A stretch of DNA of 64,000 bases from Syntrophales bacterium (GTDB lineage: Bacteria > Desulfobacterota > Syntrophia > Syntrophales > UBA2210). The translations under genes and the position numbers were made by a program. Of the stretch, positions 8,548 to 36,127 are shown one piece after another (positions within the stretch are counted from its first letter, which is position 1; each line of letters begins with the position of its first letter). The notes under the pieces were generated by a model. The model was not told where the DNA came from, did not search any database, and saw only the letters and a list, made by a program, of their open reading frames with translations. The stretch spans positions 1,472,001 through 1,536,000 of the forward strand of contig CAXXNF010000002.1 in the NCBI GenBank assembly GCA_963666365.2, read 5' to 3'.

Positions 8548-8564
8548 CAGTACAGGTTTTTGAA

Positions 8565-16701: not shown

Positions 16702-16717
16702 GCAAGGGGTGTAATGC

Positions 16718-17236
16718 ATGAATACCACAAATTTATTTCCAAGAGCGGCGCTCCTCTGCGCGTCTTTTCTCCTGTGCTTCCTTTCGGGAAGTCCTGCCTG
16801 GTCACAGGACGAAGCCAGGCTCGTTCTGAAGACGGAAGCAGCCAAGGAGATCAGGGTGAAAGAAGGAGCTGTCTGGGTCGTAAAGTACGAGCCGGTAACC
16901 GTGACAAAGCCGGGGGACATCCTGCGGTATACGGTTGCCTATCACAACGAGGGAAACGCTCCGGCAGTGGGCGCCCGTATCGTGGATCCGGTCCCGAAAG
17001 GAACCGTCTATATCATGGGAAGCGCCGCCGGCGCCGGGACGGCGATCCGATTCAGCATCGACGGCGGGGCGACCTGGCAGGCGCCCCCGGTGATGCATGT
17101 GGTGCGGAAACCCGACGGAAGCGAGAAAAAAGAGCCGGCCCCGCCGGAACTCTTCACCCATATCAGGTGGTCCCTGACGGGAGAGGTGCCCGCCGGCGGT
17201 TCCGGCAGTGTGCATTTCAAGGTCACCGTGCAGTAA
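16718..17236 (+). CDS. Small secreted single-DUF11-like protein
   Basis: Signal peptide (..SPAWS); KPGDILRYTVAYHNEG..IVDPVPKGTVYI; ends HFKVTVQ. Confidence 0.85.
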   Translation: MNTTNLFPRAALLCASFLLCFLSGSPAWSQDEARLVLKTEAAKEIRVKEGAVWVVKYEPVTVTKPGDILRYTVAYHNEGNAPAVGARIVDPVPKGTVYIMGSAAGAGTAIRFSIDGGATWQAPPVMHVVRKPDGSEKKEPAPPELFTHIRWSLTGEVPAGGSGSVHFKVTVQ

Positions 17237-17308
17237 AAGGTGGAAATCGTATGAGATTTCCATTGGATATACATTAGTTAACATTACATGAAGGGGAGGT
17301 AACAAGTC

Positions 17309-19057
17309 ATGCGTAGAATTCTCTTAACCATGGTTGTTGTTGCAGCGGCCCTCACACTGTGCTGGTCACAGGCGGAGGCCGCGGGAACTCCGGTCAACAC
17401 ATCCATCACCAACCAGGCCTATGCCGATTACAAGGACGCCAACGGCAACGACCGGCCGCGGGTCACCTCGAACACGGTCACCACCGTGGTCAGCCAGGTG
17501 GCCTCCGTCTCGAGTACTCCGGCGACGGCCTCACACAACGGCATCGCAGGCACCGATGTGGAATATCCGGCGGAGATCTGCAATAAGGGGAACGGGTCAG
17601 ACACGATCACCCTGGCAGCGGTAAACGACCAGGGATGGACTGTCACGATCTATCCCGATCTCAACGGAAACGGCGTGTGGGATTCGGGCACCGAAGGCAC
17701 GCCTGTGGCAAATACGGGATCGCTGGCCGCCGATCAGTGCTATAAAGTGATCGTAATGGTGTCCGTACCGGCAGGGACGGCAAACGGGACCATCGGCACG
17801 ACCACGCTCACCGCCACATCCACCTATAACGGTACCGTATCCGACACGTCCGTCTTTACGACTAACGCCCAGTCGGCGGTGCTCACACTTATAAAATCGG
17901 GCACGCCGGCCAATCCGAAACCGGGCGATACCATTACCTACGCGATCACCGGCAGCAACAGCGGCGGCACCGCTTACAGCGTCCGCGTCATCGACGCCAT
18001 TCCCGCCAACACCACCTACGTGACGGGGAGTATGAAGGCCGGTCCCGTGGGGGGCGAGTACGCCACTGCCTATGCAATGACGGATGCGAACGATTCGGAA
18101 AATCTGACCTACACGGTGGGGGCCGACACGGCGATCGCCAATGCCTACTATGATTCGGGCGCAACACAGATTCAGCTCGACTGGTCCCAGTGCCCTCCGG
18201 CGGGGGTCTTCTACTTCCAGGTAAAGGTAAACAGCGACGTCGCCTCGGGGACGGGCATCACCAATACGGCCACGGCCTCTTACGGCCTGCTCGACAACGG
18301 ACTGCGCCCCTACACCGAATCGACCAACGGCGCCACAGTCACCGTGGCCACCCTGCCGGGTGTTGATCTCTATTCCGACGGAACCGGCACGGGCGATCCC
18401 GGCGACCAGATGGTCTACCCCTTTACCGTCAAAAATACAGGAAACGCCACCGACACCTTCGATTTCACCTACACCTCGTCGGCGGGGTGGACCTGGGTTA
18501 TCTGGCGGGATGTGGACGGCAACGGCATTCCCGGCACCGATGGCGATGTTGCCGTCACCGATTCGGGCGATCTGGCTGCCGGGGCAACGGGGTCGTTCCT
18601 GGCCGTCGCCACCATACCGGCCGGCCAGGCTGACGGGACCGTCGACACCGTGGTCGTTACCGGTAAATCCCGCATCGACACGGGCGTAAGCGACACGGCC
18701 ACCTTCGCCACCACCGTCACGGCGCCGGTGCTGACCATCACCAAGACCGTGTCCCCCACGGGGAATCAGCCTCCGGGGACGGTGCTCACCTACCAGGCGA
18801 CGGTCACGAATGTCGGCACGGGCGTGGCTACAAGCATCATCATTGCCGACATGGTGCCCCAGTACACCACCTATGTGGCGGGCTCCATCAAAACAGGGGG
18901 CACGGCAGGCTCGCTTGTCGCACGGACCGACGCCTCCGACGGCGACGGCGGCCGCTACGACGCGGGGACCAACGCCGTCACGGCGGGAGGAGCGGGCGTG
19001 CTGAGCCTGGGGGCCGGCGGCACCTGGGTGCTGGAGTTCAAGGTGACCATCGACTAA
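17309..19057 (+). CDS. Secreted DUF11-repeat protein (candidate major filament subunit)
   Basis: Strong GGGGAGG RBS; signal peptide AEA|A; DUF11 and related Ig-like domains; ends FKVTID. Confidence 0.88.
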   Translation: MRRILLTMVVVAAALTLCWSQAEAAGTPVNTSITNQAYADYKDANGNDRPRVTSNTVTTVVSQVASVSSTPATASHNGIAGTDVEYPAEICNKGNGSDTITLAAVNDQGWTVTIYPDLNGNGVWDSGTEGTPVANTGSLAADQCYKVIVMVSVPAGTANGTIGTTTLTATSTYNGTVSDTSVFTTNAQSAVLTLIKSGTPANPKPGDTITYAITGSNSGGTAYSVRVIDAIPANTTYVTGSMKAGPVGGEYATAYAMTDANDSENLTYTVGADTAIANAYYDSGATQIQLDWSQCPPAGVFYFQVKVNSDVASGTGITNTATASYGLLDNGLRPYTESTNGATVTVATLPGVDLYSDGTGTGDPGDQMVYPFTVKNTGNATDTFDFTYTSSAGWTWVIWRDVDGNGIPGTDGDVAVTDSGDLAAGATGSFLAVATIPAGQADGTVDTVVVTGKSRIDTGVSDTATFATTVTAPVLTITKTVSPTGNQPPGTVLTYQATVTNVGTGVATSIIIADMVPQYTTYVAGSIKTGGTAGSLVARTDASDGDGGRYDAGTNAVTAGGAGVLSLGAGGTWVLEFKVTID

Positions 19058-19090
19058 GGGGCCGACAAGGCCGGTGAGAGAGAAGACGCT

Positions 19091-22000
19091 GTGACGAAGA
19101 AGATGCGGCGGAATACTACGCATTTTGTCCTTTACTGGTGCATACTGATGGTGTGCCTGTGGCACGCCTGCACCGGAGGGACACCTGCGTACGCCGCATC
19201 GCCTCCCGTCGGCACCGCCATCACGAACCGCGCCACCGTCGCGTACCACGACGCCAACGGGAACCTGCTGCCCGAGGCAAGCGCCACCGTGTCCACCATC
19301 GTTTCCGGCGCACCGGTGCTTGCCGTCACGAAAACTGCAAGCGCCGATATCGTCAGCGCCGGCGATTTACTGACCTACACCATCACCTGTGAAAACAGGG
19401 GGAATGCCGACGCCCTTTCGACGGTCGTCGTCGATCATCTGCCCGCGGAAGTGATTTTCCTCAGCGCATCGACCGGCGGCGCCTACAGCTCAGGACCGCC
19501 GGCAGGCGGCAGCGTCGCATGGAATCCGGGAACCCTCGCGGCCGGTGAACGCATTTCCCTCTGGGTCGAGGTACGGGTAAAGGCGGGTCTCGCCGTCGGT
19601 ACGATGATAGACAATACCGCCGACATCACCTCGGCCGAGGGCGCATCGGCGGCGGCGGCACAGTCCGCACGCGTGGGGTTCGCACCGAATCTTTCCATCA
19701 CAAAATCCGCTGTACAGGGCACGGTCACACCGGGAGGGACAATCACCTATACCATCGACTACAAAAACAGCGGGAATCAGACCGCATCCTTCGTTTCCAT
19801 CGGCGACACGCTTCCCGCCGGTACCACCTATGTTGACGGTTCTTCCACGGCAGACGTCACGGTCAAGGGCGGTCTGCTCTCATGGTCCATCGGATCGATA
19901 CCGGCCGGTGTGCAGGGGTCGGTCACTTTTCAGGTAACGATATCACCGGCGGCCTCTGAAGGCGACATGGTGCGGAACACGGCCGCGCTGACCAGCAAGG
20001 AAGGGGGCACCATTTCGTCAAATACGGTCGCCACCGCCGTGGTCGCATCTCCTCCGCTGATTGTGGCTAAAACGGGAGTCCCCGATCCGGTGCGGGCAGG
20101 AGATACCATTACCTATACCATCGTGGTGACAAACGGCGCGTCGACTCCCGTGACGGGACTTCTCATCACCGATCCACTGCCGGCACATACCGCCTTCGTC
20201 AGCGCCGACGCGGGAGGCGTCCTCAGCGGCGACAGCGTCGTCTGGTCCGCGGGAACACTCGCGGGAGGGGCGTCAACGACGGTCAGACTGGTGGTGCAGG
20301 CGCTGCCGTTCAGCGATCCCAATCCCGTCATTGCCAACAGGGTCTCGGCAGCGGCCAACGAGGCGCTTCTGCAGACGGCCTCGACCACGACCTCCGTCAT
20401 CTGCCGCACTCCGGCGGCGATACGCTTTCTTGATGCAGCATCGACGCCCACGAACCGGTATTCCGTGGGTGACATGATCTGCATGGAAGTGTCCGATCCC
20501 GATCAGAACCGCGATCCCCTCACGGCGGAGACGGTCACGGTCCGCATCACGACATCCGGCACCGGCGACGCGGAAACGATCATCCTCACGGAAACAGACA
20601 TCAATACGGGCGTATTCCACTCATGTCTGCCTTCCGATACCGGACCCACCGTTCAGCAGAACGGCATCCTCACCGTAGCTTCCGACATCACCGTCACGGT
20701 AGCCTACGAAGATCCGCTGGATGCCCTCTGCGGATACCAGGCGGAATCGACGGCCGATGTCCTGATCGACCCCTTCGGCGTCGTCTTCAATTCCATCACC
20801 GGGCTTCCCGTGGCCGACGCCACGGTCACCCTGATTGACGATGCCACGGGACTGGCGGCGGCGCTTCCGCTCAACCCGAAAACCGGCGCAGTTCAGCCCA
20901 ACCCGGTGGTCACAAAGGCGGACGGCGCCTTCCAGTTTGAATACGTCAGCCCGGGAACCTATCATTTTACCGTCGGCACGCCTGCAGGCTACCTGTGGCC
21001 CTCGGCCGTGCCCAATACGGAGCTGCGCCTGTCCTGGCCCGCTTTCGTCATCGACGACAACGGCTCCAAGGGTGAATCCTTCACCCTGACCGCCGCCTCT
21101 CCGCCGCTCAACATCGATCTGCCCCTGGATCCTCCCGGCGGATCCTTCGTGGTTGAAAAAACGGCGGACAAGAGCGCTGCATCCGTAGGCGATCTGGTAC
21201 AGTACACGGTGACGGTCTCGAACAACGGCGCCTCTCCTATCGGATCGATTGCCGTCCATGATGCCATGCCGCACGGCGTTCGGTATCTGAACGGCTCATC
21301 GCGCCTCGGCGGGGTGAAGATCGCCGACCCGGTTCCCACCGCCGGAAGAACGGTCATATGGAACATTCCCGCACTTGCACCGGGGGATGCGGCGGCGATT
21401 ACCTTCAGGGCCCTTGTCGGTCCCGACAGTCATCGGGGCACGGGACGAAATACGGCATGGGCCTCGGGAACGACCGTGGGCGCCGCGGTGTCTTCCAGCA
21501 TTGCCACCCACGACCTGAAAATCACCGAGGGGGTATTCACCTCCAGGGCGATCATCATCGGCAAGGTCTTTATCGACAGCGACGGAAACGGCCTTCAGAC
21601 AAACGACGCGGTCAGCGCCGAAACGACATCCGGCGGCGGCGCCACAGAACAATGCCATAACGAACCGGGCATTCCCGGCGTGGTCCTCTACCTGGAAGAC
21701 GGCACCCGGGTGATCACGGATCAGCACGGCAAATTCTCCATCCCGGGCGTTGCGCCGGGCACGCACGTTCTGCGGGTCGATACATCGTCACTGCCGGAAG
21801 GGGTCGAGCTTACGGCCTCATCGGGAAGATCCATGGGAGACGGCACGTCGCAGTTTATCTCTATAGGCTACGGCAGTCTCTTTAAAGCGAATTTCACGGC
21901 CCGCATGCGGGAGGGAACAGATTTCACCGCACTGCGGATTCAAAAACAGACGATCCTGAAGCCGGACCGCCCAACGGGCGCATCGGGCCGTTCCGGCGCC

Positions 22001-22294
22001 CCGGCTTCGATCACGCAGGCGCCGGAGCCCGTCGAAACAGGGACGGTTCTTACCGACACGCCGGCGGCCGCCGGCGCGAAGGCGGTGCATTCGGAAGAGA
22101 GTCCCGCTCCTCACACCACACCTCCCCTTGAGGAGCGCATTCTCACCATGTCGAAGGAACTCGCCTTCGTCAGCCCCGTCGACGGCGCTATCATCGCCGG
22201 CGATTCCACCGCCGTGGTGATCAAGGCGCCGGCAGGATCGACGCCCGCCCTTTCCGTCAACGGGCGCACCATCGGCAATGATAAAATCGGTTAA
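19091..22294 (+). CDS. N-terminal part of a large DUF11/SdrD-B-like outer-membrane protein (frameshifted from the next ORF)
   Basis: Signal peptide AYA|A; four DUF11 domains; DPFGVVFNSITG and IIGKVFIDSDGNG..GIPGVVLYLEDG..TDQHGKFS motifs; stop at 22294 falls mid-domain. Confidence 0.8.
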   Translation: MTKKMRRNTTHFVLYWCILMVCLWHACTGGTPAYAASPPVGTAITNRATVAYHDANGNLLPEASATVSTIVSGAPVLAVTKTASADIVSAGDLLTYTITCENRGNADALSTVVVDHLPAEVIFLSASTGGAYSSGPPAGGSVAWNPGTLAAGERISLWVEVRVKAGLAVGTMIDNTADITSAEGASAAAAQSARVGFAPNLSITKSAVQGTVTPGGTITYTIDYKNSGNQTASFVSIGDTLPAGTTYVDGSSTADVTVKGGLLSWSIGSIPAGVQGSVTFQVTISPAASEGDMVRNTAALTSKEGGTISSNTVATAVVASPPLIVAKTGVPDPVRAGDTITYTIVVTNGASTPVTGLLITDPLPAHTAFVSADAGGVLSGDSVVWSAGTLAGGASTTVRLVVQALPFSDPNPVIANRVSAAANEALLQTASTTTSVICRTPAAIRFLDAASTPTNRYSVGDMICMEVSDPDQNRDPLTAETVTVRITTSGTGDAETIILTETDINTGVFHSCLPSDTGPTVQQNGILTVASDITVTVAYEDPLDALCGYQAESTADVLIDPFGVVFNSITGLPVADATVTLIDDATGLAAALPLNPKTGAVQPNPVVTKADGAFQFEYVSPGTYHFTVGTPAGYLWPSAVPNTELRLSWPAFVIDDNGSKGESFTLTAASPPLNIDLPLDPPGGSFVVEKTADKSAASVGDLVQYTVTVSNNGASPIGSIAVHDAMPHGVRYLNGSSRLGGVKIADPVPTAGRTVIWNIPALAPGDAAAITFRALVGPDSHRGTGRNTAWASGTTVGAAVSSSIATHDLKITEGVFTSRAIIIGKVFIDSDGNGLQTNDAVSAETTSGGGATEQCHNEPGIPGVVLYLEDGTRVITDQHGKFSIPGVAPGTHVLRVDTSSLPEGVELTASSGRSMGDGTSQFISIGYGSLFKANFTARMREGTDFTALRIQKQTILKPDRPTGASGRSGAPASITQAPEPVETGTVLTDTPAAAGAKAVHSEESPAPHTTPPLEERILTMSKELAFVSPVDGAIIAGDSTAVVIKAPAGSTPALSVNGRTIGNDKIG

Positions 22295-25220
22295 AACGGT
22301 GACCCATAGTAAAGGAAAGGTTGCCCTCTTCGAATACATAGGGGTGCCTCTCGATCCCGGCGCTCCCAATGTGCTGACCGTCTCCGTGACGGATCCCTTC
22401 GGGAACAGGCGAGGCAGCGCGTCCGTCACCGTCGAGACCGTCGGCGAGGCGGATCGCATTCTTCTGTCGGCGGATCGCGAAGAGGCGCCCGCCGACGGTA
22501 ATGCGACGATTGAGGTCACCGTCTCAATCGTCGACCGGAAAGGGCATCCCGTCCCCTACGCGGCGCCGGTCACGGTAATCGTCACCCCGGGAGAAATCAT
22601 TACCGAAGACGCCGATCCTTCGACAGAGGAAGTGCAGATTGCCTGCACAAAAGGAACCGCCCGATTTAGCGTTCGGGCACCCCGCACCTCCGGCGAAGGG
22701 AACATCAATGTCTACGCCGATGCGCTGGAAGGAAGAATGAATGTCTTCTTCTTCCCCTACCTGCGCGACCTCTTTGCCGTCGGTATCGGAGAAATCACCA
22801 TCGGCCACGGCTCGACACGAGGCGATTTCGGCTACCTCAAAGACGGCAAGTGGTTCGATGATGATCTCTACGGCGGCGCCCGGGGCGCCTTCTTCCTGAA
22901 GGGAAACATTTATAAGGACTATCTGCTCACCGCCTCCTTCGATTCAGAAAAGGAAGAGGAGGACGAACTCTTCCGCCAGTCCGACACCGACATTGAGTCT
23001 GAGGACAAGTATCCTATTTACGGGGACGAGAGCACCCTGGGCTATGAAGCTATGTCGAAGGACAAGCTCTACGTCAAGGTGGAAAAAGGTCGGTCGTCGC
23101 TGCTCTACGGCGATTATCAGACGAATCTCAACGACACGGCGCTCGCCTCATACCAGCGATCGTTCAATGGACTGAAGCTCGACCTCAACACGGATCGCTT
23201 CAAACTGCGCGCCTTCGGCAGCGAAACCGATCAGACCCAGGTCGTGGACGCCCTGCCGGGACGCGGCATTTCGGGATATTATTATCTAACCCACCGGCCG
23301 GTCATCTCCGGGTCGGAACGGGTCGTCATCGAGGTGCGGGACCGGCTGCGCCCCGACCGCGTCCTCTCCCGCGAAACCCGTGCACGCGGCAGCGACTACG
23401 ACATCGATTACGATGCAGGAACCATTCTGTTCAAGGAACCGATCCCCATACGGGACAGCGACTACAACCCCGTCTATGTCACAATCAGCTATGAAGCGGA
23501 AACGGGGGGAGAAGACTATTACATTTACGGCGGGCGAGGCGCCTTCAAGGTTCTGCCCTGGCTCGAAGTGGGCGCCACAGGCATCGTGGAAGAGCAGGCC
23601 GCCGGCGATTATACGCTTTTCGGCGGAGACGTCACGTTGACGCTTCCGGGCAATACGACGGTAAAGGCCGAATACGCCGAAACGCGGGCACTGTTCGACA
23701 TATCGAATGCCATGGTAAGGAAATCCGGCGGCGGCTGGTCCTTTGAGCTCGAATCATCGCCGATAGACCGGCTTGTCCTGTCCGGCTACTATAAGAATCT
23801 GGACGACTATTTCCAGAACATCTCCGCCACCGATGCACCGCGGGGCGTCGAAAAATACGGATTCGACGGCCGCTTTGCACTGACCGACCGCATCGAATTG
23901 AAGGGAACCTTCTTTGATGAAAAGGACAAACTGAATCATTCAAGCCACAGTTATGCCTCACTGGGAGCCCAGGCCCGGCTGGGGAAAACAAAAATCACCG
24001 CGGAACTTTCAAGGGAAACCTCCGACGATCAGTACATACCGGCCACGAGCGATTCGACGAGAAGCCCCTTCGACATGAGCGAGGAATCGCCGCGTGAACT
24101 CACGGCCGCCGGCGTCGCCCTTGAAACGGAGCTTCGCCCGAACCTGTCCCTTACCGTGGGGCACAAGCGCAACATAAAGGACGAAAACCTCCACACCTCC
24201 CAGGTAGGGCTCAACTATCAGATCAGCGAGCTCAATCGCCTCTATGTGAGGGAGGAGTACCAGAAGTACAGTGAACGGACCGAGCTGAGAACCCTCTTCG
24301 GCGTGGAATCGAAGGTCATCAAAAACACCGTCGCCTTCAATGAATACCGCCTGGTGGACGGATCGGACAGTTCCCGCAATCAGCAGGCCATCGGCCTTCG
24401 GAACAAATTCCTCCTGGCCGATCATCTGACGGGAAACCTTTCCGTCGAATACCTGAGCACCCTCTCGGGAGAGGCGAAGGAGAGCGAACCGGACGCCTTT
24501 GCCCTGGCCACGGGACTGGAATATCTCCCCCGGGATGATTTCAAGGTAACGGGACGTTTCGAACACAGAAACGAACTCTCCGGCGACGGCATCGACAGCT
24601 ATCTGGGCGAATTAGGGCTTCTGCTGAAAATCACGCCCAGCTACTCGCTGCTGGCCAAGGAACGGTTTTTTTATGAAACAAGCGGCATAACGGGCGCCCA
24701 CACCAGCTCACGCACCATGGTGGGACTTGCCTGGCGGCCCCTCTGCGACGACCGGTTCAACGGCCTTGCGAAAGCGGAATACAAGGTCGACGACAACGGC
24801 ACGATTGATCCGGATTATAAAACCACGGCCTTCATTCTATCTACAGAAGGTGTCTACCAGGTAAACAGCCGGCTCCAGCTTTCGGCCAAATACGCGGGGA
24901 AACTGTCGCGCGACAGCGAGTATTCCTCCTACACGGACCTCCTTTCGGCACGGATCATCTACGACGTGACGGACCGCATCGACCTCGGGGCCGAGTACAG
25001 AGTGCTGACAAGCCATAAAATCGGAAGCACCCTTCAGGGAGGAAATCTGGAAGTCGGCTATCGGGTGGTCAAGAACCTCTGGGTCTCCCTGGGCTATTCC
25101 TTCGACGACTTCGATGCCGATCTCATCGGCGACGACTACCAGGGAAGAGGGCCCTATGTAAAACTCCGCTTCAAGTTCAGCGAAGACTCCATAAAAAACC
25201 TCTTCAAAAAGAAAAAATGA
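22278..25220 (+). CDS. C-terminal part: Ig-like domain plus large outer-membrane beta-barrel-like region
   Basis: No signal peptide; long run of alternating amphipathic strands; ends ..YVKLRFKFSE..; continues the upstream ORF in another frame. Confidence 0.75.
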   Translation: MIKSVKTVTHSKGKVALFEYIGVPLDPGAPNVLTVSVTDPFGNRRGSASVTVETVGEADRILLSADREEAPADGNATIEVTVSIVDRKGHPVPYAAPVTVIVTPGEIITEDADPSTEEVQIACTKGTARFSVRAPRTSGEGNINVYADALEGRMNVFFFPYLRDLFAVGIGEITIGHGSTRGDFGYLKDGKWFDDDLYGGARGAFFLKGNIYKDYLLTASFDSEKEEEDELFRQSDTDIESEDKYPIYGDESTLGYEAMSKDKLYVKVEKGRSSLLYGDYQTNLNDTALASYQRSFNGLKLDLNTDRFKLRAFGSETDQTQVVDALPGRGISGYYYLTHRPVISGSERVVIEVRDRLRPDRVLSRETRARGSDYDIDYDAGTILFKEPIPIRDSDYNPVYVTISYEAETGGEDYYIYGGRGAFKVLPWLEVGATGIVEEQAAGDYTLFGGDVTLTLPGNTTVKAEYAETRALFDISNAMVRKSGGGWSFELESSPIDRLVLSGYYKNLDDYFQNISATDAPRGVEKYGFDGRFALTDRIELKGTFFDEKDKLNHSSHSYASLGAQARLGKTKITAELSRETSDDQYIPATSDSTRSPFDMSEESPRELTAAGVALETELRPNLSLTVGHKRNIKDENLHTSQVGLNYQISELNRLYVREEYQKYSERTELRTLFGVESKVIKNTVAFNEYRLVDGSDSSRNQQAIGLRNKFLLADHLTGNLSVEYLSTLSGEAKESEPDAFALATGLEYLPRDDFKVTGRFEHRNELSGDGIDSYLGELGLLLKITPSYSLLAKERFFYETSGITGAHTSSRTMVGLAWRPLCDDRFNGLAKAEYKVDDNGTIDPDYKTTAFILSTEGVYQVNSRLQLSAKYAGKLSRDSEYSSYTDLLSARIIYDVTDRIDLGAEYRVLTSHKIGSTLQGGNLEVGYRVVKNLWVSLGYSFDDFDADLIGDDYQGRGPYVKLRFKFSEDSIKNLFKKKK

Positions 25221-25298
25221 CGCCTGGAGACCTGACATAATTCCCTCAATCCTGACGTCACGACGCATGCAAAGAGACCTTTTGTGGCCAAAATCTTC

Positions 25299-25327
25299 TT
25301 GACACACAAGAGACGGCTTAATAAACT
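25299..25327 (+). promoter_or_regulatory. Putative sigma70 promoter of the saposin-like gene
   Basis: TTGACA (25299-25304), 17-bp spacer, TAAACT (25322-25327). Confidence 0.55.
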
Positions 25328-25377
25328 TCGGCTCACAAAAAGGAAGTTCTTATCAATTCAATTTAAAAGGAGATCCC

Positions 25378-25710
25378 ATGCGAAAACGGTTGTTCCTTCT
25401 CTTTGCGGTGATCGCTCTGTTGCCGGCCGGTCTCTCCCAGGGGCGGCTCGCCTTGGAACCCTGCAGCGCTTACGCGGACCTGAACTGCGCGGTCTGTGAG
25501 TGGGTGATGGCCGAGGTGGACAAGTGCCCAGGGGCGACCAGGGAACAGATCGCGCAGTGCCTCGACCGCTCCTGCGCCTTCCTCCCGTACAGCGTCAGGA
25601 CCCTCTGCGATTCCTTCGTGAAGACCAAGGGCCCGCAGTGCGTGGACCTCCTGGTCGCGAAGGTCCCACCGGAACAGATCTGCACCTCGGTGGGCTCCTG
25701 CACCAAATAG
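25378..25710 (+). CDS. Secreted saposin-B-like (SAPLIP-fold) protein
   Basis: AAGGAG RBS; signal peptide; Cys pattern C37xxC40...C66xxLP...C77xxFV...PxxIC102xxxGxC108 matches the saposin six-cysteine signature. Confidence 0.75.
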   Translation: MRKRLFLLFAVIALLPAGLSQGRLALEPCSAYADLNCAVCEWVMAEVDKCPGATREQIAQCLDRSCAFLPYSVRTLCDSFVKTKGPQCVDLLVAKVPPEQICTSVGSCTK

Positions 25711-25818
25711 GGCCCATCTCCTCTTTACCGGCCCTCCGGATGAAGGCAAGAGGGAAAAGCCAAATTACAGTTTATTTTCTCCGAAAAGTACAATATATCG
25801 ATACTTACTGGAGACACT

Positions 25819-26418
25819 ATGCCGAAGGATCATGCCACCCTGATGCACGAAATGCGGGATTACGCCTCGCCGAAGGCGCGTCTGACGCGGATGATCAAGT
25901 CGGGCGAGCTAATCCAGGTGCGCAGGGGGATATTTCTGGAGAAAAAAGAAACAGGATATTCCCTCAAAAGTCTCGCGTCAATCATCTACGGCCCCTCCTA
26001 TATCTCCTTTGAATACGCCCTGGGCCATTACAGGCTGATCCCGGAACGGGTTCAGGCCGTCACCTCGGCGGTGTACAACAAAAACAAGAATCGCCGCTTC
26101 CATACTCCCCTGGGCGATTTTTACTACTATTATCTTCCGGCTAAGGTCTTCCCCTATGGTGTCGTCCTGGGAGAGGAAAACGGCCAGCGCTATCTGATGG
26201 CCACGCCGGAAAAGGCGCTTTGCGACAGTCTCTACAAAACGCGGGGCATCGGCAGCGTGAAGGCCCTCAAGGCTCTGTTCTTTGAGGACTGGCGAATGGA
26301 ACGAGAGGCTGTCCTTTCCCTGGACCGGGAGAGCATTCTTTTTTTGGCCCCCCTGTACAGAAAGCAGATTTTCCCGCTGCTTCTGAATTGGTTGGAGGAC
26401 GAGGCGAATGATGCATAG
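25819..26418 (+). CDS. abiEi: Type IV toxin-antitoxin antitoxin, AbiEi family
   Basis: IYGPSYISFEYALGHYRLIPE and ATPEKALCD; overlaps the downstream toxin gene. Confidence 0.85.
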   Translation: MPKDHATLMHEMRDYASPKARLTRMIKSGELIQVRRGIFLEKKETGYSLKSLASIIYGPSYISFEYALGHYRLIPERVQAVTSAVYNKNKNRRFHTPLGDFYYYYLPAKVFPYGVVLGEENGQRYLMATPEKALCDSLYKTRGIGSVKALKALFFEDWRMEREAVLSLDRESILFLAPLYRKQIFPLLLNWLEDEANDA

Positions 26419-27298
26419 CGCACTGCAGGACATGCTCAAGGCCTACGATTGCCGCACGGCGGATGACTACCGCCACGCGCTCAATGAAACCGTCCAGGAA
26501 ATCGCTCTATTAGGGCTTTATCGCGGAGGTTTTTTCACCAAAGCGGCCTTCTACGGTGAAACGGCCCTCCGCATTTTCTACGGCCTCGATCGTTTTTCAG
26601 AAGACCTGGATTTTTCGTTGCTGAAAAGCGACCCGTCCTTTGATCTGTCCTCCTTTACACAGGTGTTGCAGGATGAACTGGGCGCTTACGGTCTGGAGAT
26701 GACGGTTCAGAAAAAGATCAAACGCAACGATTCTCCCGTTCAATCGGCCTTCATCAAAGGAGGCACGCAAATGCATCTGCTGACGATCGCATCGGTTCAA
26801 CCGCCCGTGTCCGGCATCAACCCCAAGGAACAACTCCGGATCAAGTGTGAAGTGGATACCGAACCACCAGGCGGCGCAACCTTCGAAATGAAATATCAAC
26901 TGCGCCCGGTGCCTTATTCTGTGCGCCTTTACTCGCCCTCATCGCTTTTCGCCGGGAAAGTCCACGCACTGCTCTGCCGGTCGTGGAAAAGGAGGGTCAA
27001 GGGACGCGACTTTTACGATTATGTCTGGTTTTTGTCCCGATCGATTCCGGTGAGCCTCGCTCATCTGGCGGAGCGGATGAGGCAGACGGGACACCTTTCA
27101 GCCAATGCGGTCCTCAGTGAAGAGGCCCTCAGGGATTGTTTGAGAAAACGCTTTGCAGTCGTTGATTTCGATCAGGTGCGAAAAGACGTGCTGCCCTTCA
27201 TCAAAAATGCCGAGGCCGTCCATCTCTGGTCGGCAGATTTTTTCTCTCGGATTACGGATGAACACCTTCACACCGAAGGGGCCAAAGCCGATGTCTGA
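26408..27298 (+). CDS. abiEii: Type IV toxin-antitoxin nucleotidyltransferase toxin, AbiEii/AbiGii family
   Basis: AAFYGETALRIFYGLDRFSEDLDFS, LFAGKVHA, RVKGRDFYD. Confidence 0.9.
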   Translation: MMHSALQDMLKAYDCRTADDYRHALNETVQEIALLGLYRGGFFTKAAFYGETALRIFYGLDRFSEDLDFSLLKSDPSFDLSSFTQVLQDELGAYGLEMTVQKKIKRNDSPVQSAFIKGGTQMHLLTIASVQPPVSGINPKEQLRIKCEVDTEPPGGATFEMKYQLRPVPYSVRLYSPSSLFAGKVHALLCRSWKRRVKGRDFYDYVWFLSRSIPVSLAHLAERMRQTGHLSANAVLSEEALRDCLRKRFAVVDFDQVRKDVLPFIKNAEAVHLWSADFFSRITDEHLHTEGAKADV

Positions 27299-27391
27299 CT
27301 CGGAAAAATTATCCCGTCCGGGATCCCCACCCTTCAAGTTGTTTTGTTCTGCGGCGGACTGGTGCAAGAAGATAAAAATGCACTCACCCTT

Positions 27392-29935
27392 TCACTCCGG
27401 TCTCATTCCCACCAGCTGCTGCAGGATGTAAATCGCCTCTCCCAATCCCTGTGGGCCGCTGCCGCCGTTGCCGCATGGACCGGCGACCGCGAGCAGGGCG
27501 GTGGCCGTGCCTGTCTGGGACGCCCCGTCGGTGACGGTGAGCGTCACATCATAGAATCCCGGCTGCAGATCCGTCAGATCCGGTGTTGCCCCCGTTGCCG
27601 TCCTGTTGTAAGCGGCATTTGTGCGGTGGGTCAGTGTCCACTGATAGGATATGATGTTCCCCTGTGAGGCGCTGCCATCCAGGTGCGCACTGTCGAACAC
27701 CACGAGATCCGGACCCGCATTGGCCGCCGTCTGCAGATGAAAGGCGGCGGTAACCGTCGTGGCCGCATTCAGCGTGACCGTGCACGTTCCCGTCCCTCCA
27801 CAGCCCCCGCCGCTCCAGCCGGAAAAGACGGCGCCGGGGGCGGCAGCCGCCGTGAGGGTTACCGTCGTTCCCGCATCGAAGGAGGCCGTGCAGATGTCAC
27901 CGCAGGCGATCCCTGCCGGCACGCTGGTGACCGTGCCGGCGCCGTCGCCGGATTTGACGATGGTCAGGGTCACCTTTGCGGGAGGGGCCGCCGCCGTCGA
28001 ATAGAGTTCAGCTGTTCCGCCCGGATCTCCTCCCACGATAAGGATGTCATATTCCGGGGAAAGACCGGGCAGGTAGGTGGCGGTATGAAAGAGCCGGGGG
28101 GTGGTCATCTGCGCCGTGGTCACGGTGAAATCGTCCGTCGATAAATCGAGTATCTCCATTGTCGCATTCAACGGGCAGCCTCCGCTGACAAGGAGCCGTC
28201 CGTCCGTGAGCTGCGTCACCTCAGCGCCGAACCGCCCGTGATTGAGGGTCCCGTAGGCCGAGAAGGTTCCCGTCAGGGGGTTGTAAATTTCCGTTGACGT
28301 CAGAACAGTTCCCGGGTTGTTCATTTCCGTAAGGCCGCCGCCGAAGACGATCTGAAAATTGCCGGCCATTGTTCTGGCCGCCGCCATCGATCCCGTGGCG
28401 GAGAATGTGCCCGTCGCGGCATCGTAGATTTCGGCGCCGGCAAGTGCACCGGCGCCATTGCTTCCTCCGGCAAGGAGGACCTTCGTTTCACTCAACGGCG
28501 TCGCCCGGTGGTAGACCCGCCCGGTGACCATGGTCCCTGTGGGGGTGAACACTCCCGATGCCGCGTCATAGAGATCGGCCGTGTTGGTGACACTCACTGT
28601 CGTTTCCGTCATTGCGCTGGCGCCGCCGGCAAAAAGGATCTTCATTCCTTTGGAGATCGGATCCATAATGGCCGTTGCCGTGTACAGCTGCCGGGGCGTG
28701 CTCATCTTTGAGGCCAGCAGCGTAAAGACGCCCGTGGCCGGGTCGTAGAGCTCGGCGCTGTCGATGTTGGTGGAAATGCCGTCCAGGGCATGAAATCCGC
28801 CGGCGACGAGTACCCTTCCGTCGAGCAGCAGAGTCGCCGTATGTCCCATGCGGGGAACATGCATGGATCCCGTCAGTGTAAAGGTCCGTGTCGCCGGATC
28901 GTACAGTTCCGCCGTGGCCGTAGCACCTGCCGGACCTGTCCCGTTGTGGCCGCCTGCAATAAGCACCTTGCCGTTCAGCAATCGTAGGGCCGTGTGGTAC
29001 CCGCCCCGCGGGGTCTGGGTAGCGCCCAGCGGAATGACGGATCGGGGAAGGGGGGGCGCAAGCTGATGAACGGCAAATCCGTTCTTTCCCGATCCGAGAC
29101 TGACGAATGCCATGCGGGGCACGCCCGCTGTGGCATTTGCGGCAGCATTGATAGAGATCTCGCCGCTTCCCGTACCGGCGGCAATGCCGTTGATGGAAAG
29201 CCATTCCACTCCCGGTTGAACCGCGGCGCTCCAGGCGCAGTCTTCAGAAGAGGCTGTAATGTGCAGGGTCGCGTCACCCCCTTCGGGACCGAGATAGACG
29301 CTTATGGGGTTTGCGCTGCCCGCCCTGGCCACCACAAAGGTGCAGTCTTCCGATGCGGCCGCCGGTGCAAATACGATGTCATCTATCGTAAAGTCGCCGA
29401 AATTCTCCTTTGCGATCTCGATTTTGGTAATTGCCGTCGCCGTGGAAGGAAGGGTGATAGAGGCGGCAACGGTACCGCTGAAAGTGGGAAGGGGCCCGAG
29501 CGATACCGGTGTTGAAATCTCGCCGTTCATGGGGTTGGCCAGCGTGGTGCGCACCGGCGTCCCGCTGTCAAGATAGGTAAGGTACACGGCAACCGTGCGC
29601 CATCCATCGTCGGGGGTTCCCGATTTCACCAGCTTCATGGAAAAGGTGTAGGATTTCCCCCCCACGCCGGTGATGCTCAGATTCTGGTAGATGATCGTTC
29701 CCGTGTACCCGCCGGAGGGTGGGTGAAGATTCACCGCGCCGTCCACGAGCGGCCAGGGGGGCGGCTCCGTGGGCACGACCACCCAGCCCAGGATACCCGC
29801 CGAAAAATCCCCGTTGGCAATCAGGTTTTGCGCCCGGAGCTCACGCGATGTCACAGACAACAAAAAACACACGCACACCAGCACCCAAACCGCCTTGGTC
29901 GCATTGCGCACCATAGAGTCCTCCTTGATTCTCAC
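27392..29935 (-). CDS. Secreted multidomain protein: carbohydrate-binding-like, BACON, kelch beta-propeller, InlB-B-repeat-like, PKD-like
   Basis: Signal peptide; kelch repeats (HTATLLLDGRVLVAGG..AELYDPATG); TVTLTA..FSGWSGG.C.GTG.C; ANAGPD..LDGSAS..YQW. Probable start is ATG 29914. Confidence 0.85.
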   Translation of the reverse strand: MRIKEDSMVRNATKAVWVLVCVCFLLSVTSRELRAQNLIANGDFSAGILGWVVVPTEPPPWPLVDGAVNLHPPSGGYTGTIIYQNLSITGVGGKSYTFSMKLVKSGTPDDGWRTVAVYLTYLDSGTPVRTTLANPMNGEISTPVSLGPLPTFSGTVAASITLPSTATAITKIEIAKENFGDFTIDDIVFAPAAASEDCTFVVARAGSANPISVYLGPEGGDATLHITASSEDCAWSAAVQPGVEWLSINGIAAGTGSGEISINAAANATAGVPRMAFVSLGSGKNGFAVHQLAPPLPRSVIPLGATQTPRGGYHTALRLLNGKVLIAGGHNGTGPAGATATAELYDPATRTFTLTGSMHVPRMGHTATLLLDGRVLVAGGFHALDGISTNIDSAELYDPATGVFTLLASKMSTPRQLYTATAIMDPISKGMKILFAGGASAMTETTVSVTNTADLYDAASGVFTPTGTMVTGRVYHRATPLSETKVLLAGGSNGAGALAGAEIYDAATGTFSATGSMAAARTMAGNFQIVFGGGLTEMNNPGTVLTSTEIYNPLTGTFSAYGTLNHGRFGAEVTQLTDGRLLVSGGCPLNATMEILDLSTDDFTVTTAQMTTPRLFHTATYLPGLSPEYDILIVGGDPGGTAELYSTAAAPPAKVTLTIVKSGDGAGTVTSVPAGIACGDICTASFDAGTTVTLTAAAAPGAVFSGWSGGGCGGTGTCTVTLNAATTVTAAFHLQTAANAGPDLVVFDSAHLDGSASQGNIISYQWTLTHRTNAAYNRTATGATPDLTDLQPGFYDVTLTVTDGASQTGTATALLAVAGPCGNGGSGPQGLGEAIYILQQLVGMRPE

Positions 29936-30106
29936 TTCACAAAAAAAAACATCTACCTATATTGACATGGAAAAACGCCGGTTCGGAAGAACCGGCAACA
30001 GATACGGAATGACAATGGCTGAAATTATCTTCGAGACCTTTCCCAAAGTCAAATGCTTTTTATACGAGGCTTTTTTTGGTACTGTGAAATGCATCACATG
30101 CTAATA

Positions 30107-30245
30107 AATAGGGACACTTCCCTCTTTAATCGTTAGGATCGTTAGTAGCGTTATGAACGTTGAGATCGTTATTGTCAAAACGTTCCTAACGTTTCTAACG
30201 TTCTAAACGCTCTCAACGGTTTTTAAAGAGGGAAGTGTCCCTATT
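30107..30245. repeat. Paired-hairpin (REPIN/MITE-like) element, copy A
   Basis: Perfect 23-bp inverted termini AATAGGGACACTTCCCTCTTTAA / TTAAAGAGGGAAGTGTCCCTATT; the interior has 9-bp CGTT../..AACG units. Confidence 0.9.
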
Positions 30246-30246
30246 C

Positions 30247-31065
30247 TCAAGGCCCGTCGATGCCTACGCCTTTGAGCCTGGCCAGAGAGTCGGTCAGAAA
30301 GGCGATGTCCTCCCGTCGGTCGATGATGCTTCCGTGCTGGGGGGCGATCATCGAGGCGCCCACCCCGCCGATCACTTCCATCGCATGGTGCAGCGCCTTT
30401 TCCGAGGGCATGACGTTGCGGTGGAAGGTCAGCAGATCGGTCATGGGGCAGTAGGGCTTCCCGTAGACACAAGGACCGCCGCTGTCGTAGTCGTCACAGG
30501 CGCGGCACTGTTCGTCCAGCCTCAGGAAAAGATCCCACTGCTGCGAGTAGCTCCCAAAAAGGTCGCTGGTGAAGAGCGTCTCCGTCCGGGGATCCCAGGT
30601 AATTAAACTCCCGGCAGTGTGGGCGAAGGGGGTACTGAAAAAGCGCAGTTCCCGGCCGTTGAAAGAAAAGACCATTCCCTGATCGTCCAGGGACCGGAAA
30701 AGCCCCCGCTTTTCCCGCTCCAGATAGAAACTCAAAAAGAAGTTGTTTGCCCGATCGGAGAGGATCGTAAGCGCCTTGTGTGCGCAGAGGTCGACCATGT
30801 TGGCCATGGAGCCGCAGAGATCCGGATCGGCGTGCTGATAGATGAGGGCCACAATCTGCTCCGGCGCGATCCCGGTCTGGAGGATCTTGCGCATGACCAC
30901 AGGGAAATCGGCGCGACTGCCCGCATCGATGAGCACGGCCTTGTCCCCTTCAACGATCAGGTAGGGATTGCAGTGAAAATTGCTGTAGGCATCGTGAAAA
31001 CCCACCCAGTGAATCCCCGGCGCAATCTCCACCGGCCGGTTATAGCGCTTCTGTTCCACTGTCAT
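30247..31065 (-). CDS. MBL-fold protein, ODP (oxygen-binding di-iron protein)-like
   Basis: HCNPYLI, LIDAGS, HADPDLCGS, LFTSDLFG, IAPQHGSII. Confidence 0.8.
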   Translation of the reverse strand: MTVEQKRYNRPVEIAPGIHWVGFHDAYSNFHCNPYLIVEGDKAVLIDAGSRADFPVVMRKILQTGIAPEQIVALIYQHADPDLCGSMANMVDLCAHKALTILSDRANNFFLSFYLEREKRGLFRSLDDQGMVFSFNGRELRFFSTPFAHTAGSLITWDPRTETLFTSDLFGSYSQQWDLFLRLDEQCRACDDYDSGGPCVYGKPYCPMTDLLTFHRNVMPSEKALHHAMEVIGGVGASMIAPQHGSIIDRREDIAFLTDSLARLKGVGIDGP

Positions 31066-31852
31066 GGCGTTCCCCCAGGACAAAATAGGCCTTCATCAGG
31101 CCCCTGTGTTTAAGGGGGATTTCTCCCCGCTCCTCGAAAAAAAACCGTTCACGGGTCAGGACATAGGTCTCGTGCGAGCAGTTCACCCGTCCCGGCGCCC
31201 CGGCGGTCTCGAAACGGGAGGCGATATTGACGCTGTCGCCGAAGATATCGAACTGCATGCGCTCTTCTCCCACCACGCCCGCCATCACCGTGCCCGTATG
31301 GATCCCGATCCGGGATTCGAGTTTCAGATCGCCCCGCGTGCTGAAAGCCTTGAGTTGTTTCTGCATGGCCAGCCCCGCCTGAAGGGCCAGCGAGGGATGA
31401 TCGGGATCGGGCCGCGGGGCGCCAAAAACCGCCATGTAGGCGTCGCCGATGGTCTTGACCTTCGTGCCCCGAAAGCGGTGTATCAGTGTGTCCGCGGCTC
31501 TGACCACCATGTCAAGCATCTCGATCAGCTTTTCGCCCGAGAGCTGCGCTGCCAGTTGGGTAAAGTCGCAGATGTCGGCAAAGAGAATCGTACAGTGGCA
31601 GGCGCGGGGGGCAAAGCTCCCGGACTCCTTGATCTCCTCGGCCACCTCGGCGGGCAGGGTGTTTTTCAGCAGTTCGTCGACCTGCTTTTCCAGGACAACG
31701 TATTGCCGGATCAGCTCTTTGAGAAGACGCTGCTGGATGCCGCTGTCCTGAATGGTGGCAACGGACTGAAAATAGTCCACCAGGACCGACTCCGTCTGTC
31801 CGTTTCTCCGCCGCTCCTCCTGAGGCAGTTCTGTCGATGATTCATTGGGCAC
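31040..31852 (-). CDS. Class III adenylate/guanylate cyclase
   Basis: TILFADICDFT, KVKTIGDAYM, RIGIHTG, FDIFGDSVNIASR. GTG 31852 follows an AAGGGAAGG RBS; the ORF track extends to 31948. Confidence 0.9.
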   Translation of the reverse strand: MPNESSTELPQEERRRNGQTESVLVDYFQSVATIQDSGIQQRLLKELIRQYVVLEKQVDELLKNTLPAEVAEEIKESGSFAPRACHCTILFADICDFTQLAAQLSGEKLIEMLDMVVRAADTLIHRFRGTKVKTIGDAYMAVFGAPRPDPDHPSLALQAGLAMQKQLKAFSTRGDLKLESRIGIHTGTVMAGVVGEERMQFDIFGDSVNIASRFETAGAPGRVNCSHETYVLTRERFFFEERGEIPLKHRGLMKAYFVLGERHDSGTEAL

Positions 31853-31984
31853 TCGGCTATTTCCCTTCCCTTTCTTGACCCTGACGTTCAGTTGTGATTC
31901 TAACCCGTGGTCGCGGGAAACGCAAAGGAAAACAGGACAAATTTTCACAGGGTGTTTCGCAATGGACCGGCCGCAGTACAGTTC

Positions 31985-33490
31985 TTAGAGCATGGTCCCC
32001 TTTTTCTGATAGTTCAGGTGCCAGGAGAAGGCCTCTTCAAGCAGCATCGGGATGTGACCGCCCGTCTGCGCGACGGCGCGGCGGTGGTAGGCGCGAAGGG
32101 CATCGCGGTAGTTCGGGTGTGCGCAGTGCTCGATGATGGTTTCGGCCCGTTCGCAGGGATCGAGCCCCCGCAGATCGGCCAGCCCCTGTTCGGTGACAAG
32201 TACATGGACCTCGTGCTCCGTATGGTCGACATGGGTGACCTGGGGCACAATGCAGGATATGGTTCCGTTCTTCGCGGTTGACGGCGTCAGAAAGACGGAC
32301 AGATAGGCGTTTCTCGAAAAGTCGCCCGAGCCGCCGATGCCGTTGACGACGGAACTGCCGAACATGTGCGTTGAGTTTACATTACCGTATATGTCGGCCT
32401 CAACCGCCGTATTCATCGCCACTACGCCCAGGCGGGCTGCAATTTCGCCGCTGTTGCTGATCTCCTGGGGACGAAGCACTATTTTCCGGCGGTAGACATC
32501 TATGTGTTCGTAAAAGCGCCGGAGCCCCTCCGGTGAAAGAGCCAGCGATGTGGCCGATGCGAAGGTGAGCTTTCCCACATCGATTAGATCCAGTATGGCG
32601 TCCTGTATCACCTCGGACCAGAGCGTGAGGTCCGTCCAGTCACTTTCGAGTATCCCCTGCATGACCGCATTGGCAATTCCGCCCACACCGGACTGTAGCG
32701 GCGGAATGTGTTCGTACATCCGGCCCCGAATATGGCGGTTCATAAAATCGATAAGGTGCACCGCCATTCGTTTCGATGTGTCGTTCACAGGAGCGAGCGG
32801 TCTGGTTCTGTCAAGCATATCGGAAGGACAGATCGCAACGATCTTGGCCGGATCGCAGGGAATGGAGATTCGGCCGATCCGCTGCGAAGGATCGGTAATC
32901 GGGATGGGAAGCCGCCGGGGAGGAGGTTCCGGACTGTAGATGTCGTGGATGCCGATCATGCCCGGGGGCTGTGCCCCGTTGAGTTCCACGATGACTTGCT
33001 TTGCTTCAGCCACAAGGGTGGCCGAGGCGCCTACCGACGTGGTGGGGACGATACCGCCGTCTTCCATGACCGCCGTCGCTTCGATAACGGCAATGTCCAC
33101 GGGCCCCAGAAAGCCGAAACGAAGCTGCTCCGCCAGTTTTCCCAGGTGGATGTCACAATATTTAATGCGGCCTTCATTGATTTCCCGGTTGATCACGGCG
33201 CCTGTCTGATAGGGGTAGCGCCGCGCAATGGCGCCTACAGAAGCGAGGGCTTCGTCCAGCTCGACCCCGGTCGAGGCGCCGGTGACAAGACCGATCTTGA
33301 GTTTTTCCCCCTCTCTTACGCGTTCCGCCAGGGCCAGGGGAAAGGTTTTTGGATATCCGCAGGAGGTAAATCCGCTGCAGGCCAGCATCATGCCGTCTTC
33401 GACAAGCCGCGCGGCCTCTTTCGCGGTGGTGATTTTCGAGATGAGTTCCCTACAGTAGATACGATCCTTTACCGACACAGCTGCTTCCAT
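31985..33490 (-). CDS. Succinate CoA-transferase / acetyl-CoA hydrolase-transferase family
   Basis: SGFT..GYPK, LQSGVG, SEVIQD, LRPQEISN, NGIGGSGDFSRNA, VTEQGLADLRG. Confidence 0.92.
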   Translation of the reverse strand: MEAAVSVKDRIYCRELISKITTAKEAARLVEDGMMLACSGFTSCGYPKTFPLALAERVREGEKLKIGLVTGASTGVELDEALASVGAIARRYPYQTGAVINREINEGRIKYCDIHLGKLAEQLRFGFLGPVDIAVIEATAVMEDGGIVPTTSVGASATLVAEAKQVIVELNGAQPPGMIGIHDIYSPEPPPRRLPIPITDPSQRIGRISIPCDPAKIVAICPSDMLDRTRPLAPVNDTSKRMAVHLIDFMNRHIRGRMYEHIPPLQSGVGGIANAVMQGILESDWTDLTLWSEVIQDAILDLIDVGKLTFASATSLALSPEGLRRFYEHIDVYRRKIVLRPQEISNSGEIAARLGVVAMNTAVEADIYGNVNSTHMFGSSVVNGIGGSGDFSRNAYLSVFLTPSTAKNGTISCIVPQVTHVDHTEHEVHVLVTEQGLADLRGLDPCERAETIIEHCAHPNYRDALRAYHRRAVAQTGGHIPMLLEEAFSWHLNYQKKGTML

Positions 33491-33502
33491 TCCATAGTGT
33501 TA

Positions 33503-33623
33503 AATAGGGACACTTCCCTATTTAATCGTTAGTAGCGTTATGAGCGTTCAGATCGTTACTGTTAAAACGTTCCTAACGTTCTAAACGCTCTCAACGGTTT
33601 TTAAATAGGGAAGTGTCCCTATT
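33503..33623. repeat. Paired-hairpin element, copy B
   Basis: 23-bp inverted termini AATAGGGACACTTCCCTATTTAA / TTAAATAGGGAAGTGTCCCTATT; same interior type as copy A. Confidence 0.9.
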
Positions 33624-35961: not shown

Positions 35962-36127
35962 TCCTAAATACTATAAAATTTTTCACCTTGTTCCCTGACG
36001 TATATTTTTAAGGGACTCACGAGGCACACCCGACCATCAAGACCTCTTACAGTTTCATCATCTTCAGGTCGGCTCGCATCCTCTTACATTGGCCATGTAG
36101 AGATTATGTATGCCACATAAGGAAGAT

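Follow-up and report, generated by a model that had tools for sequence, protein, structure and literature searches.

A saposin B-type protein encoded in the chromosome of a Syntrophales bacterium, with evidence for its lateral acquisition

Saposin-like proteins (SAPLIPs) are described in PMC5890168 as tools of eukaryotic lysosomes and of innate immunity that occur "from protozoans to mammals"; the same source defines them by a compact bundle of four or five alpha-helices and presents them as a class that interacts with lipids and membranes (PMC5890168). Human saposins C and D are sphingolipid activators, each one of four domains cut from prosaposin, a precursor with SapA modules, whereas the amoeba SAPLIPs are lytic phagocyte effectors. 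Here, we analyzed a gene for such a protein in the chromosome of a Syntrophales bacterium (assembly GCA_963666365.2). The gene lies at positions 25378 to 25710 of a stretch of 64,000 nucleotides (the window; C2:1472001-1536000, C2 being the 2.47-Mb contig CAXXNF010000002.1), 1.5 Mb into the contig, in a genome of two contigs that totals 4.0 Mb (52% GC, 94% complete, 3% contamination). An initial annotation, made from the sequence alone, had proposed that it encodes a secreted protein with a saposin fold. We found that the protein is a saposin B-type domain, homologous to saposins and a member of the SAPLIP family, and that its lateral acquisition is well supported by the composition of the gene, its distribution and an empty site in a close relative. 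The features of the locus are as follows.

25227..25734, no strand assigned: cassette of 508 bp with promoter, leader, saposin open reading frame (ORF) and 24 nt of 3' flank; a sediment metagenome contig has about 6 nt instead
25299..25327, + strand: putative sigma-70-like promoter, TTGACA-17-TAAACT, within a 60-nt element 75% identical to the region upstream of a PI-PLC-like lipoprotein gene
25366..25372, + strand: Shine-Dalgarno sequence AAAGGAG, read from the sequence
25378..25710, + strand: saposin ORF, 110 residues and stop codon, from its translation and its Pfam and PDB sequence matches
25378..25443, + strand: predicted signal peptide, residues 1-22 (RKR, hydrophobic core, S-Q-G), from hydropathy and inspection
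25474..25707, + strand: saposin B-type domain, residues 33-110, from Pfam, a PDB sequence match, alignment and a structure model

Family membership was established by profile and sequence searches. The Pfam model SapB_2 (PF03489), one of the profiles that the initial annotation had proposed to search, matched residues 76-108 on model positions 2-34 of 34 with 28.2 bits, above its curated cut-off of 21 (E = 2.2e-6), and a genome-wide search with the same model recovered the same place. SapB_1 (PF05184) reached 14.7 bits (cut-off 25.2) over residues 36-49 only, and the whole-domain model PF20825 reached 21.9 (cut-off 27). Nonetheless, saposins C and D (E about 1e-9) and 19 homologous domains can be aligned with the N-terminal half over its full length. 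The shortfall with SapB_1 coincides with a 2-residue deletion and the loss of an N-x-T site: at the position of the N-x-T/S glycosylation site of eukaryotic domains lie the deletion and C50, and N-A-T has become G-A-T. A search of PDB sequences returned human saposin D and C chains, with E values of 1.5e-9 to 4e-9 over residues 33/37-109. In the alignment with the 19 domains (31-44% identity), C37, C40, C66, C77, C102 and C108, which had been read as a saposin-B spacing, are all invariant, as is P70; the cysteines follow the pattern C-x2-C ... C ... C ... C-x5-C and correspond in alignment to those of saposins C and D. The match goes beyond chance. No match was found in the protein for SapA (PF02199) in Pfam, for any NCBIfam family or for any PADLOC defence family.

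A HMMER search of 1.84 billion protein representatives returned 1056 proteins at E <= 0.001. Among the best 150 of them, all 149 other than the query itself are multi-saposin precursors, with lengths of 261-3236 aa and 3 to 29 matched stretches apiece. No close single-domain relative was present among the matches listed, where it would have outscored the bottom of the list (about 102 bits); scored per domain, the best matches reached about 60 bits. A word-indexed protein search with the saposin as query recovered only the query itself from 6 candidates. The same search with the saposin alignment, restricted to near lengths, yielded 7 proteins among 633 candidates, and the five examined resemble fragments of eukaryotic multi-saposin proteins.

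Structure prediction agreed with the sequence matches. A single-sequence model (mean per-residue confidence, pLDDT, 67.9) was matched by Foldseek to saposin C (2gtg) with a template-modelling score (TM) of 0.87 and a root-mean-square deviation (rmsd) of 1.5 Å, and about the first 30 rows listed were nearly all SAPLIPs or saposin-domain proteins. A second model, from AlphaFold and built on an 18-row alignment of whole proteins, had a pLDDT of 92-97 in the domain, with helices at residues 30-47, 55-68, 71-93 and 98-104; residues 3-14 were helical as well, and residues 18-27 fell below 50. Alignment to 2gtg with VIA-align gave a Z score of 12.8 and an rmsd of 1.4 Å over 76 of 78 residues, and the scores then descended through saposin D (12.4-12.7), granulysin (11.3), NK-lysin (10.7) and saposin A (10.4-10.5) to amoebapore A (6.1). 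The comparison with saposins and NK-lysin that had been suggested earlier returned a saposin fold in both models, and the modelled domain is a compact bundle of the four or five helices by which the family is defined. Given the SapB_2 match above its cut-off, neither the missing SapB match nor the different fold that would have spoken against the initial annotation was seen. We conclude that the protein is predicted to fold as a saposin. Going by homology only, the disulfides would be C37-C108, C40-C102 and C66-C77 (1-6, 2-5, 3-4), and two further ones would be possible among C29, which precedes the domain by a few residues, and C50, C61 and C88 within it.

The gene itself carries the signals that had been read from it. 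On the + strand, direct translation gives the intact, intron-free ORF of 110 codons and stop codon, with all ten cysteines where they had been reported (29, 37, 40, 50, 61, 66, 77, 88, 102 and 108) and with the three reported motifs, C66-AF-LP, C77-DS-FV and P98-EQ-IC-TSV-G-S-C108 (CAFLP, CDSFV and PEQICTSVGSC). The N-terminus consists of MRKR, a 15-residue hydrophobic stretch (Kyte-Doolittle 9-residue means up to 3.4) and S-Q-G; by inspection, residues 1-22 fit the signal peptide of the Sec type that had been proposed, with predicted cleavage after G22, and the segment does not fit a lipobox. The proposed promoter is present at 25299-25327, matches 10 of 12 consensus positions and is the sole sigma-70-like site in 25150-25900, where 0.3 would be expected from shuffled sequence. 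The Shine-Dalgarno sequence, likewise proposed before, ends 5 nt upstream of the ATG. Residues 23-110, the predicted mature protein, contain 9 K+R and 10 D+E, giving a net charge of -1.3 and an isoelectric point (pI) of 5.25, and the protein has no histidine anywhere.

Among solved structures, human saposins C and D (2GTG, 2R0R and 3BQQ) are the best match of the protein both in sequence and in structure (Z 12.4-12.8, rmsd 1.4-2.0 Å over 76-78 residues). It shares with them the six-cysteine pattern, the LP after the third cysteine and an acidic to near-neutral charge, but it is a stand-alone single domain with four extra cysteines, a replaced N-x-T site, a bacterial host, a predicted Sec signal peptide and 28-33% identity. 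A prosaposin was ruled out by the single domain and the lack of a SapA module and a glycosylation site. The closest sequences found belong to multi-saposins of invertebrates and protists (Amphiura, Clytia, Nematostella, Ptychodera, Anaeramoeba flamelloides, Eukaryota sp. TZLM1-RC and TZLM3-RCL) and to metagenome proteins, whose single repeats score up to 60 bits at 31-46% identity; these differ in having 3-29 repeats, six cysteines per repeat and charges of -2 to -12, and none is close enough for a donor to be named.

Other SAPLIPs are more distant. In their architecture of a signal peptide and one SAPLIP domain, amoebapore A, Dictyostelium AplD and the naegleriapores are the same as the protein described here, as far as PMC5890168 covers them. 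Structurally, amoebapore A is remote (Z 6.1, rmsd 4.0 Å, 16% identity), and the C-terminal histidine of amoebapores has no counterpart in a protein devoid of histidine. The saposin domains of lipid hydrolases (AOAH, acid sphingomyelinase, GALC-SapA) gave Z scores of 5.7-7.0 and offer a conceptual model for the hand-over of lipids to a phosphodiesterase; in contrast to them, there is no fusion here, and the saposin and PI-PLC-like genes are 672 kb apart. The mature domains of NK-lysin and granulysin have a strong net positive charge, and a cationic lytic SAPLIP of this kind was rejected at a net charge of -1.3. Enterocin AS-48 and the leaderless bacteriocins are helical and membrane-active with a saposin-like fold, but they differ in lacking sequence homology and disulfides and in being cationic and circular or leaderless, and AS-48 reached a Foldseek E value of only 3.4; the protein described here is homologous to eukaryotic saposins and not an analogue of them. 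A bacteriocin of the AS-48 type was ruled out by the ten cysteines, the Sec signal peptide and the acidic charge, and no immunity or ABC-transporter genes of that type lie next to the saposin gene.

To our surveys of genomes, the gene appeared only once. The saposin protein as query was found in 1 of 41 genomes, which is its own; the remaining 40 share its genus (1), family (23) or order (16). The saposin profile likewise matched a single genome among 339 of the order (1/204 among those at least 90% complete) and 1 of 401 drawn evenly from the phylum, a result that PF03489 repeated (1/401). These surveys covered the window's own phylum and do not establish rarity across all bacteria; domain databases contain a few bacterial SapB entries. 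By tblastn, the saposin matched none of 72,556 plasmid or 50,697 phage records, and pattern scans of genome, metagenome and viral contig collections, which detect close relatives only, confirmed no relative. Among rows with an organism name, all homologues are eukaryotic, from animals or protists, at 25-46% identity: echinoderms, cnidarians, molluscs, hemichordates, arthropods and vertebrates on the one hand, Anaeramoeba flamelloides, Eukaryota sp. TZLM1-RC and TZLM3-RCL and Capsaspora on the other. In the open-access papers searched we found no report of a bacterial saposin homologue, and no paper linking saposin with eukaryotic-like proteins of bacterial genomes or with Syntrophus. The saposin gene is thus a singleton among the relatives searched.

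Its composition also sets the gene apart. At 64% GC, it has a GC content at third codon positions (GC3) of 86.5%, whereas the long ORFs of the genome, taken from a crude call of ATG-started ORFs of at least 350 aa, average 60.7% (standard deviation 7.0); only 0.14% of 4176 windows of the same length from these ORFs reach the value of the saposin gene. In a genome of the same genus (G001), the upstream genes are kept at 73-74% nucleotide identity and a convergent mutS follows 22 nt past the last of them, whereas mutS in this genome is 545 kb away. Synteny stops at the stop codon of the 980-aa protein encoded upstream. Because it breaks at the saposin gene and returns at the nucleotide level only at about 36285, the interval of 25.2-36.1 kb appears to be a variable segment.

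A metagenome contig brought the borders of the insertion into view. This 387-nt contig (depth 5), from a sediment in an unrelated study, matches 25038-25226 (189 nt, 9 differences) and, after 40 other letters, 25770-25927 (158 nt, 2 differences); by eye, the final 34 of these letters can be aligned with 25735-25769. A very close relative therefore has an empty site, in which 25227-25734 (508 bp) is replaced by about 6 nt between flanks 95-99% identical to this genome, and the cassette represents a presence/absence polymorphism. The empty site points to a recent gain or a very recent loss, and a gain in this lineage is more parsimonious because the gene is absent from all other relatives searched. 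At the cassette borders we found no target-site duplication, inverted repeats or Rfam family. An 8-nt direct repeat, CTGGAGAC, at 25224 and 25808 was considered as a border repeat, but it is off the right border and was taken as chance. Another metagenome joint, skipping 1029 nt, was disregarded as unreliable, its sides being just 21-27 nt. Together, these data leave lateral acquisition of the saposin domain well supported as a reading of the sequences. The initial annotation had offered a protein either horizontally acquired or ancient: of the two, horizontal acquisition is favoured, with absence from 338 genomes of the order and 400 of the phylum sample, the outlying GC3 and the empty site on its side.

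A promoter element is shared with a second gene of the same genome. A segment of 60 nt with the -35 box in it recurs at C2:2169673 with 75% identity, and the two sites are the only ones in the genome with an exact 16-mer that contains the box. A third copy of the promoter and leader (25290-25358) is present on an 8451-nt contig of the sediment metagenome, with 88% identity (8 differences in 69 nt). This suggests that 25290-25358 is a conserved regulatory element in this lineage, and the promoter region, judged from these copies, does not look foreign. The second genomic copy lies 177 nt upstream of a gene for a 666-aa cysteine-rich lipoprotein with an LTGC lipobox (C2:2169673-2171850). Residues 335-666 of the lipoprotein resemble the X domain of phosphatidylinositol-specific phospholipase C (PI-PLC) by language-model features only (score 0.94; 21/30 matches in that family set), and searches of Pfam, NCBIfam and PDB sequences gave no match. 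The lipoprotein was found in 1 of the 41 genomes, and its gene adjoins an IS110 transposase gene. Prediction of a complex between saposin residues 23-110 and lipoprotein residues 335-666 scored 0.01 against a mark of 0.32, which is evidence neither way. Co-regulation and cooperation of the two proteins are put forward here as a hypothesis only.

We consider it probable that the locus is a bacterial gene for a secreted single-domain SAPLIP whose domain was acquired laterally, ultimately from a eukaryote, and which now occupies a 508-bp cassette of a Syntrophales chromosome, and that its product probably serves in membrane-lipid scavenging. The protein would be exported through Sec and cleaved to a mature form of about 88 residues, which would fold into a closed four-helix saposin bundle. 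On contact with a membrane the bundle may open and extract or solubilise lipids, by analogy with lysosomal saposins, and the lipids would thereby become available to hydrolases or for uptake. Scavenging of membrane lipids for a fatty-acid-degrading syntroph would be the likeliest role, with direct membrane damage to other cells as the alternative. A lipid-extracting helper is favoured because the charge, the pI and the missing histidine resemble acidic saposins; the protein is in these respects nearer the acidic, lipid-presenting saposins than cationic NK-lysin and granulysin.

Several observations weigh against this interpretation. The argument from charge is weak, since Dictyostelium AplD, described in PMC5890168 as negatively charged, nevertheless forms pores (PMC5890168). 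The domain tree, built by a quick method on 80 columns from 151 domain rows that represent 52 proteins by at most 3 domains each, identified no donor: the saposin stood on a long branch (0.84) within no supported clade, and the best domain identity was 46%, to a metagenome protein without an organism name. The long branch and this identity fit poorly with a very recent transfer from sampled eukaryotes. The gene is dispensable, since a close relative does without the cassette, and no bacterial relatives of the protein were found in the searches. Moreover, the oxidation of an exported protein with ten cysteines poses a difficulty: no DsbA (PF01323), DsbB (PF02600) or VKOR (PF07884), nor Thioredoxin_4 or Thioredoxin_5, was found in the 94%-complete genome. 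Only generic Thioredoxin_2 matches were present, and the host is presumably a strict anaerobe. The exported cysteine-rich proteins of the genome include the saposin, the 666-aa lipoprotein and a Kelch/PKD protein.

Among other explanations, a pore-former with cytolytic or antimicrobial action, comparable to amoebapores, AplD or NK-lysin and directed at competitors, grazing protists or a host, would share the architecture of amoebapores and AplD, a signal peptide and one SAPLIP domain, and would be compatible with a negative charge, as AplD illustrates in the same source (PMC5890168). Granulysin (Z 11.3) and NK-lysin (Z 10.7) are also strong structural matches. We nevertheless regard a pore-former as unlikely: at a net charge of -1.3 there is no cationic face, by sequence the nearest proteins are saposins C and D and prosaposin repeats, whereas lytic SAPLIPs are 16-19% identical in structural alignments, and no immunity gene is evident adjoining the saposin gene. 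The activity of amoebapores depends on a C-terminal histidine, and the saposin has none. It is improbable, in our view, that the gene is a recently inserted passenger without any contribution, either unexpressed or unfoldable without periplasmic disulfide enzymes. Such a passenger would be expected to be a singleton missing from a close relative, with a composition that has not drifted toward that of the genome, and the lack of DsbA, DsbB and VKOR fits it as well; but the ORF is intact, and it has a good promoter, a Shine-Dalgarno sequence and a predicted bacterial signal peptide, none of which a raw eukaryotic fragment would bring. All six canonical cysteines and P70 are kept, the promoter element resembles a native one, which suggests domestication, and the genome exports other cysteine-rich proteins, such as the 666-aa lipoprotein.

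Two further explanations concern the origin of the gene rather than its role. The outlying GC3 and the exclusively eukaryotic named homologues might indicate an assembly chimera or eukaryotic contamination, so that the saposin would not be the bacterium's. However, the gene is 1.5 Mb inside a 2.47-Mb contig with bacterial genes on both sides, and it is intron-free with bacterial expression signals. A check for chimerism found Logan contigs of two runs (3304 nt and 7933 nt) that span all of 24800-26300 with 0 differences; both runs are of one sample, possibly the source, and are not independent support. Contamination or chimerism is very unlikely. The unplaced donor and the long branch would also suit an ancient bacterial saposin, inherited vertically and lost from nearly all other lineages. 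For this to hold, 338 of the 339 order genomes and 400 of the 401 in the phylum sample must have lost the gene, and the explanation has against it the atypical composition of the gene and the empty site in a relative whose flanks are 95-99% identical; we hold it to be highly improbable.

Returning to the laterally acquired, lipid-scavenging SAPLIP, a more elaborate version can be formulated, which we offer as a speculation of doubtful standing: lysosomal-type membrane digestion would be rebuilt outside the cell, with the captured saposin lifting lipids from foreign membranes and the secreted PI-PLC-like lipoprotein cleaving them under one promoter element, yielding fatty acids for the syntroph, and with folding that is independent of Dsb enzymes. 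If this were true, copies of a single promoter/leader element would control two genes that no relative searched possesses, and strict anaerobes would possess an unrecognised disulfide route or a saposin that does without disulfides.

A canonical, sequence-homologous saposin in a bacterial chromosome, with bacterial signals for expression and export, would represent a clean transfer from eukaryote to bacterium. The transfer would have been caught early, because a close relative still has the empty site and the base composition of the gene has yet to approach that of the host. The protein is small and easily expressed and could serve to ask what a bacterium gains from lipid extraction; it is a test case for the maturation of a saposin fold in an organism without DsbA and DsbB, and possibly a non-glycosylated scaffold for saposin-lipid nanoparticles. 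As one gene in one genome with an inferred function, it is interesting, not transformative.

The saposin gene sits in a chromosomal bacterial context. The same window carries complete aro and trp operons (trpEGDCF, aroA/B/C/E/K), efp, epmA and hypB, as well as benzoyl-CoA-reductase-like or 2-hydroxyacyl-CoA-dehydratase-like genes. Records titled Syntrophobacterales, Syntrophales or Syntrophaceae share 87-67% identity with its EF-P, and Syntrophus buswellii shares 70%; as the nearest named relatives of this EF-P are Syntrophales, the host is an uncultured member of that order. The neighbours that had been named earlier, a filament operon and a toxin-antitoxin module, correspond to a DUF11/VWA surface-protein operon upstream and to AbiEi/AbiEii downstream.

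22278..25220, + strand: 980-aa Big_1/invasin-like protein with the C-terminus ...LRFKF, last gene of the VWA/DUF11 surface-protein operon
25819..27298, + strand: AbiEi (25819-26418) and AbiEii (26408-27298), with PADLOC scores of 197 and 352.7 bits and a Pfam AbiEii score of 90.2 bits

By these matches, AbiEi and AbiEii appear to be a type IV toxin-antitoxin or abortive-infection pair. The upstream genes form a one-strand run (7658-25220, +) that encodes a GvpN-like AAA protein, a 1470-aa VWA protein, three DUF11-repeat proteins (1044, 582 and 1067 aa), a 187-aa protein without a family match and the 980-aa invasin-like protein. This run, the former "filament operon", is probably a cell-surface adhesin or fibre system. 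The 1067-aa DUF11 protein (19091-22294) and the 980-aa protein (22278-25220) are encoded in different frames that have 17 nt in common (22278-22294). In G001, the genome of the same genus, a single uninterrupted ORF of >1500 aa takes the place of both. This genome therefore has a single-base frame shift near 22290, which may be a real split or an assembly error.

Downstream, the accessory-like variable region of ~11 kb (about 25218-36285) contains, besides the saposin gene and AbiEi/AbiEii, genes for a Kelch/PKD protein, an ODP metallo-beta-lactamase-fold protein, a class III adenylate/guanylate cyclase, an acetyl-CoA hydrolase/transferase and a PAS histidine kinase with a receiver domain. The first of these lies beyond AbiEii (27392-29935, - strand); its 847-aa secreted product combines Kelch repeats with an InlB B-repeat-like domain and a PKD domain.

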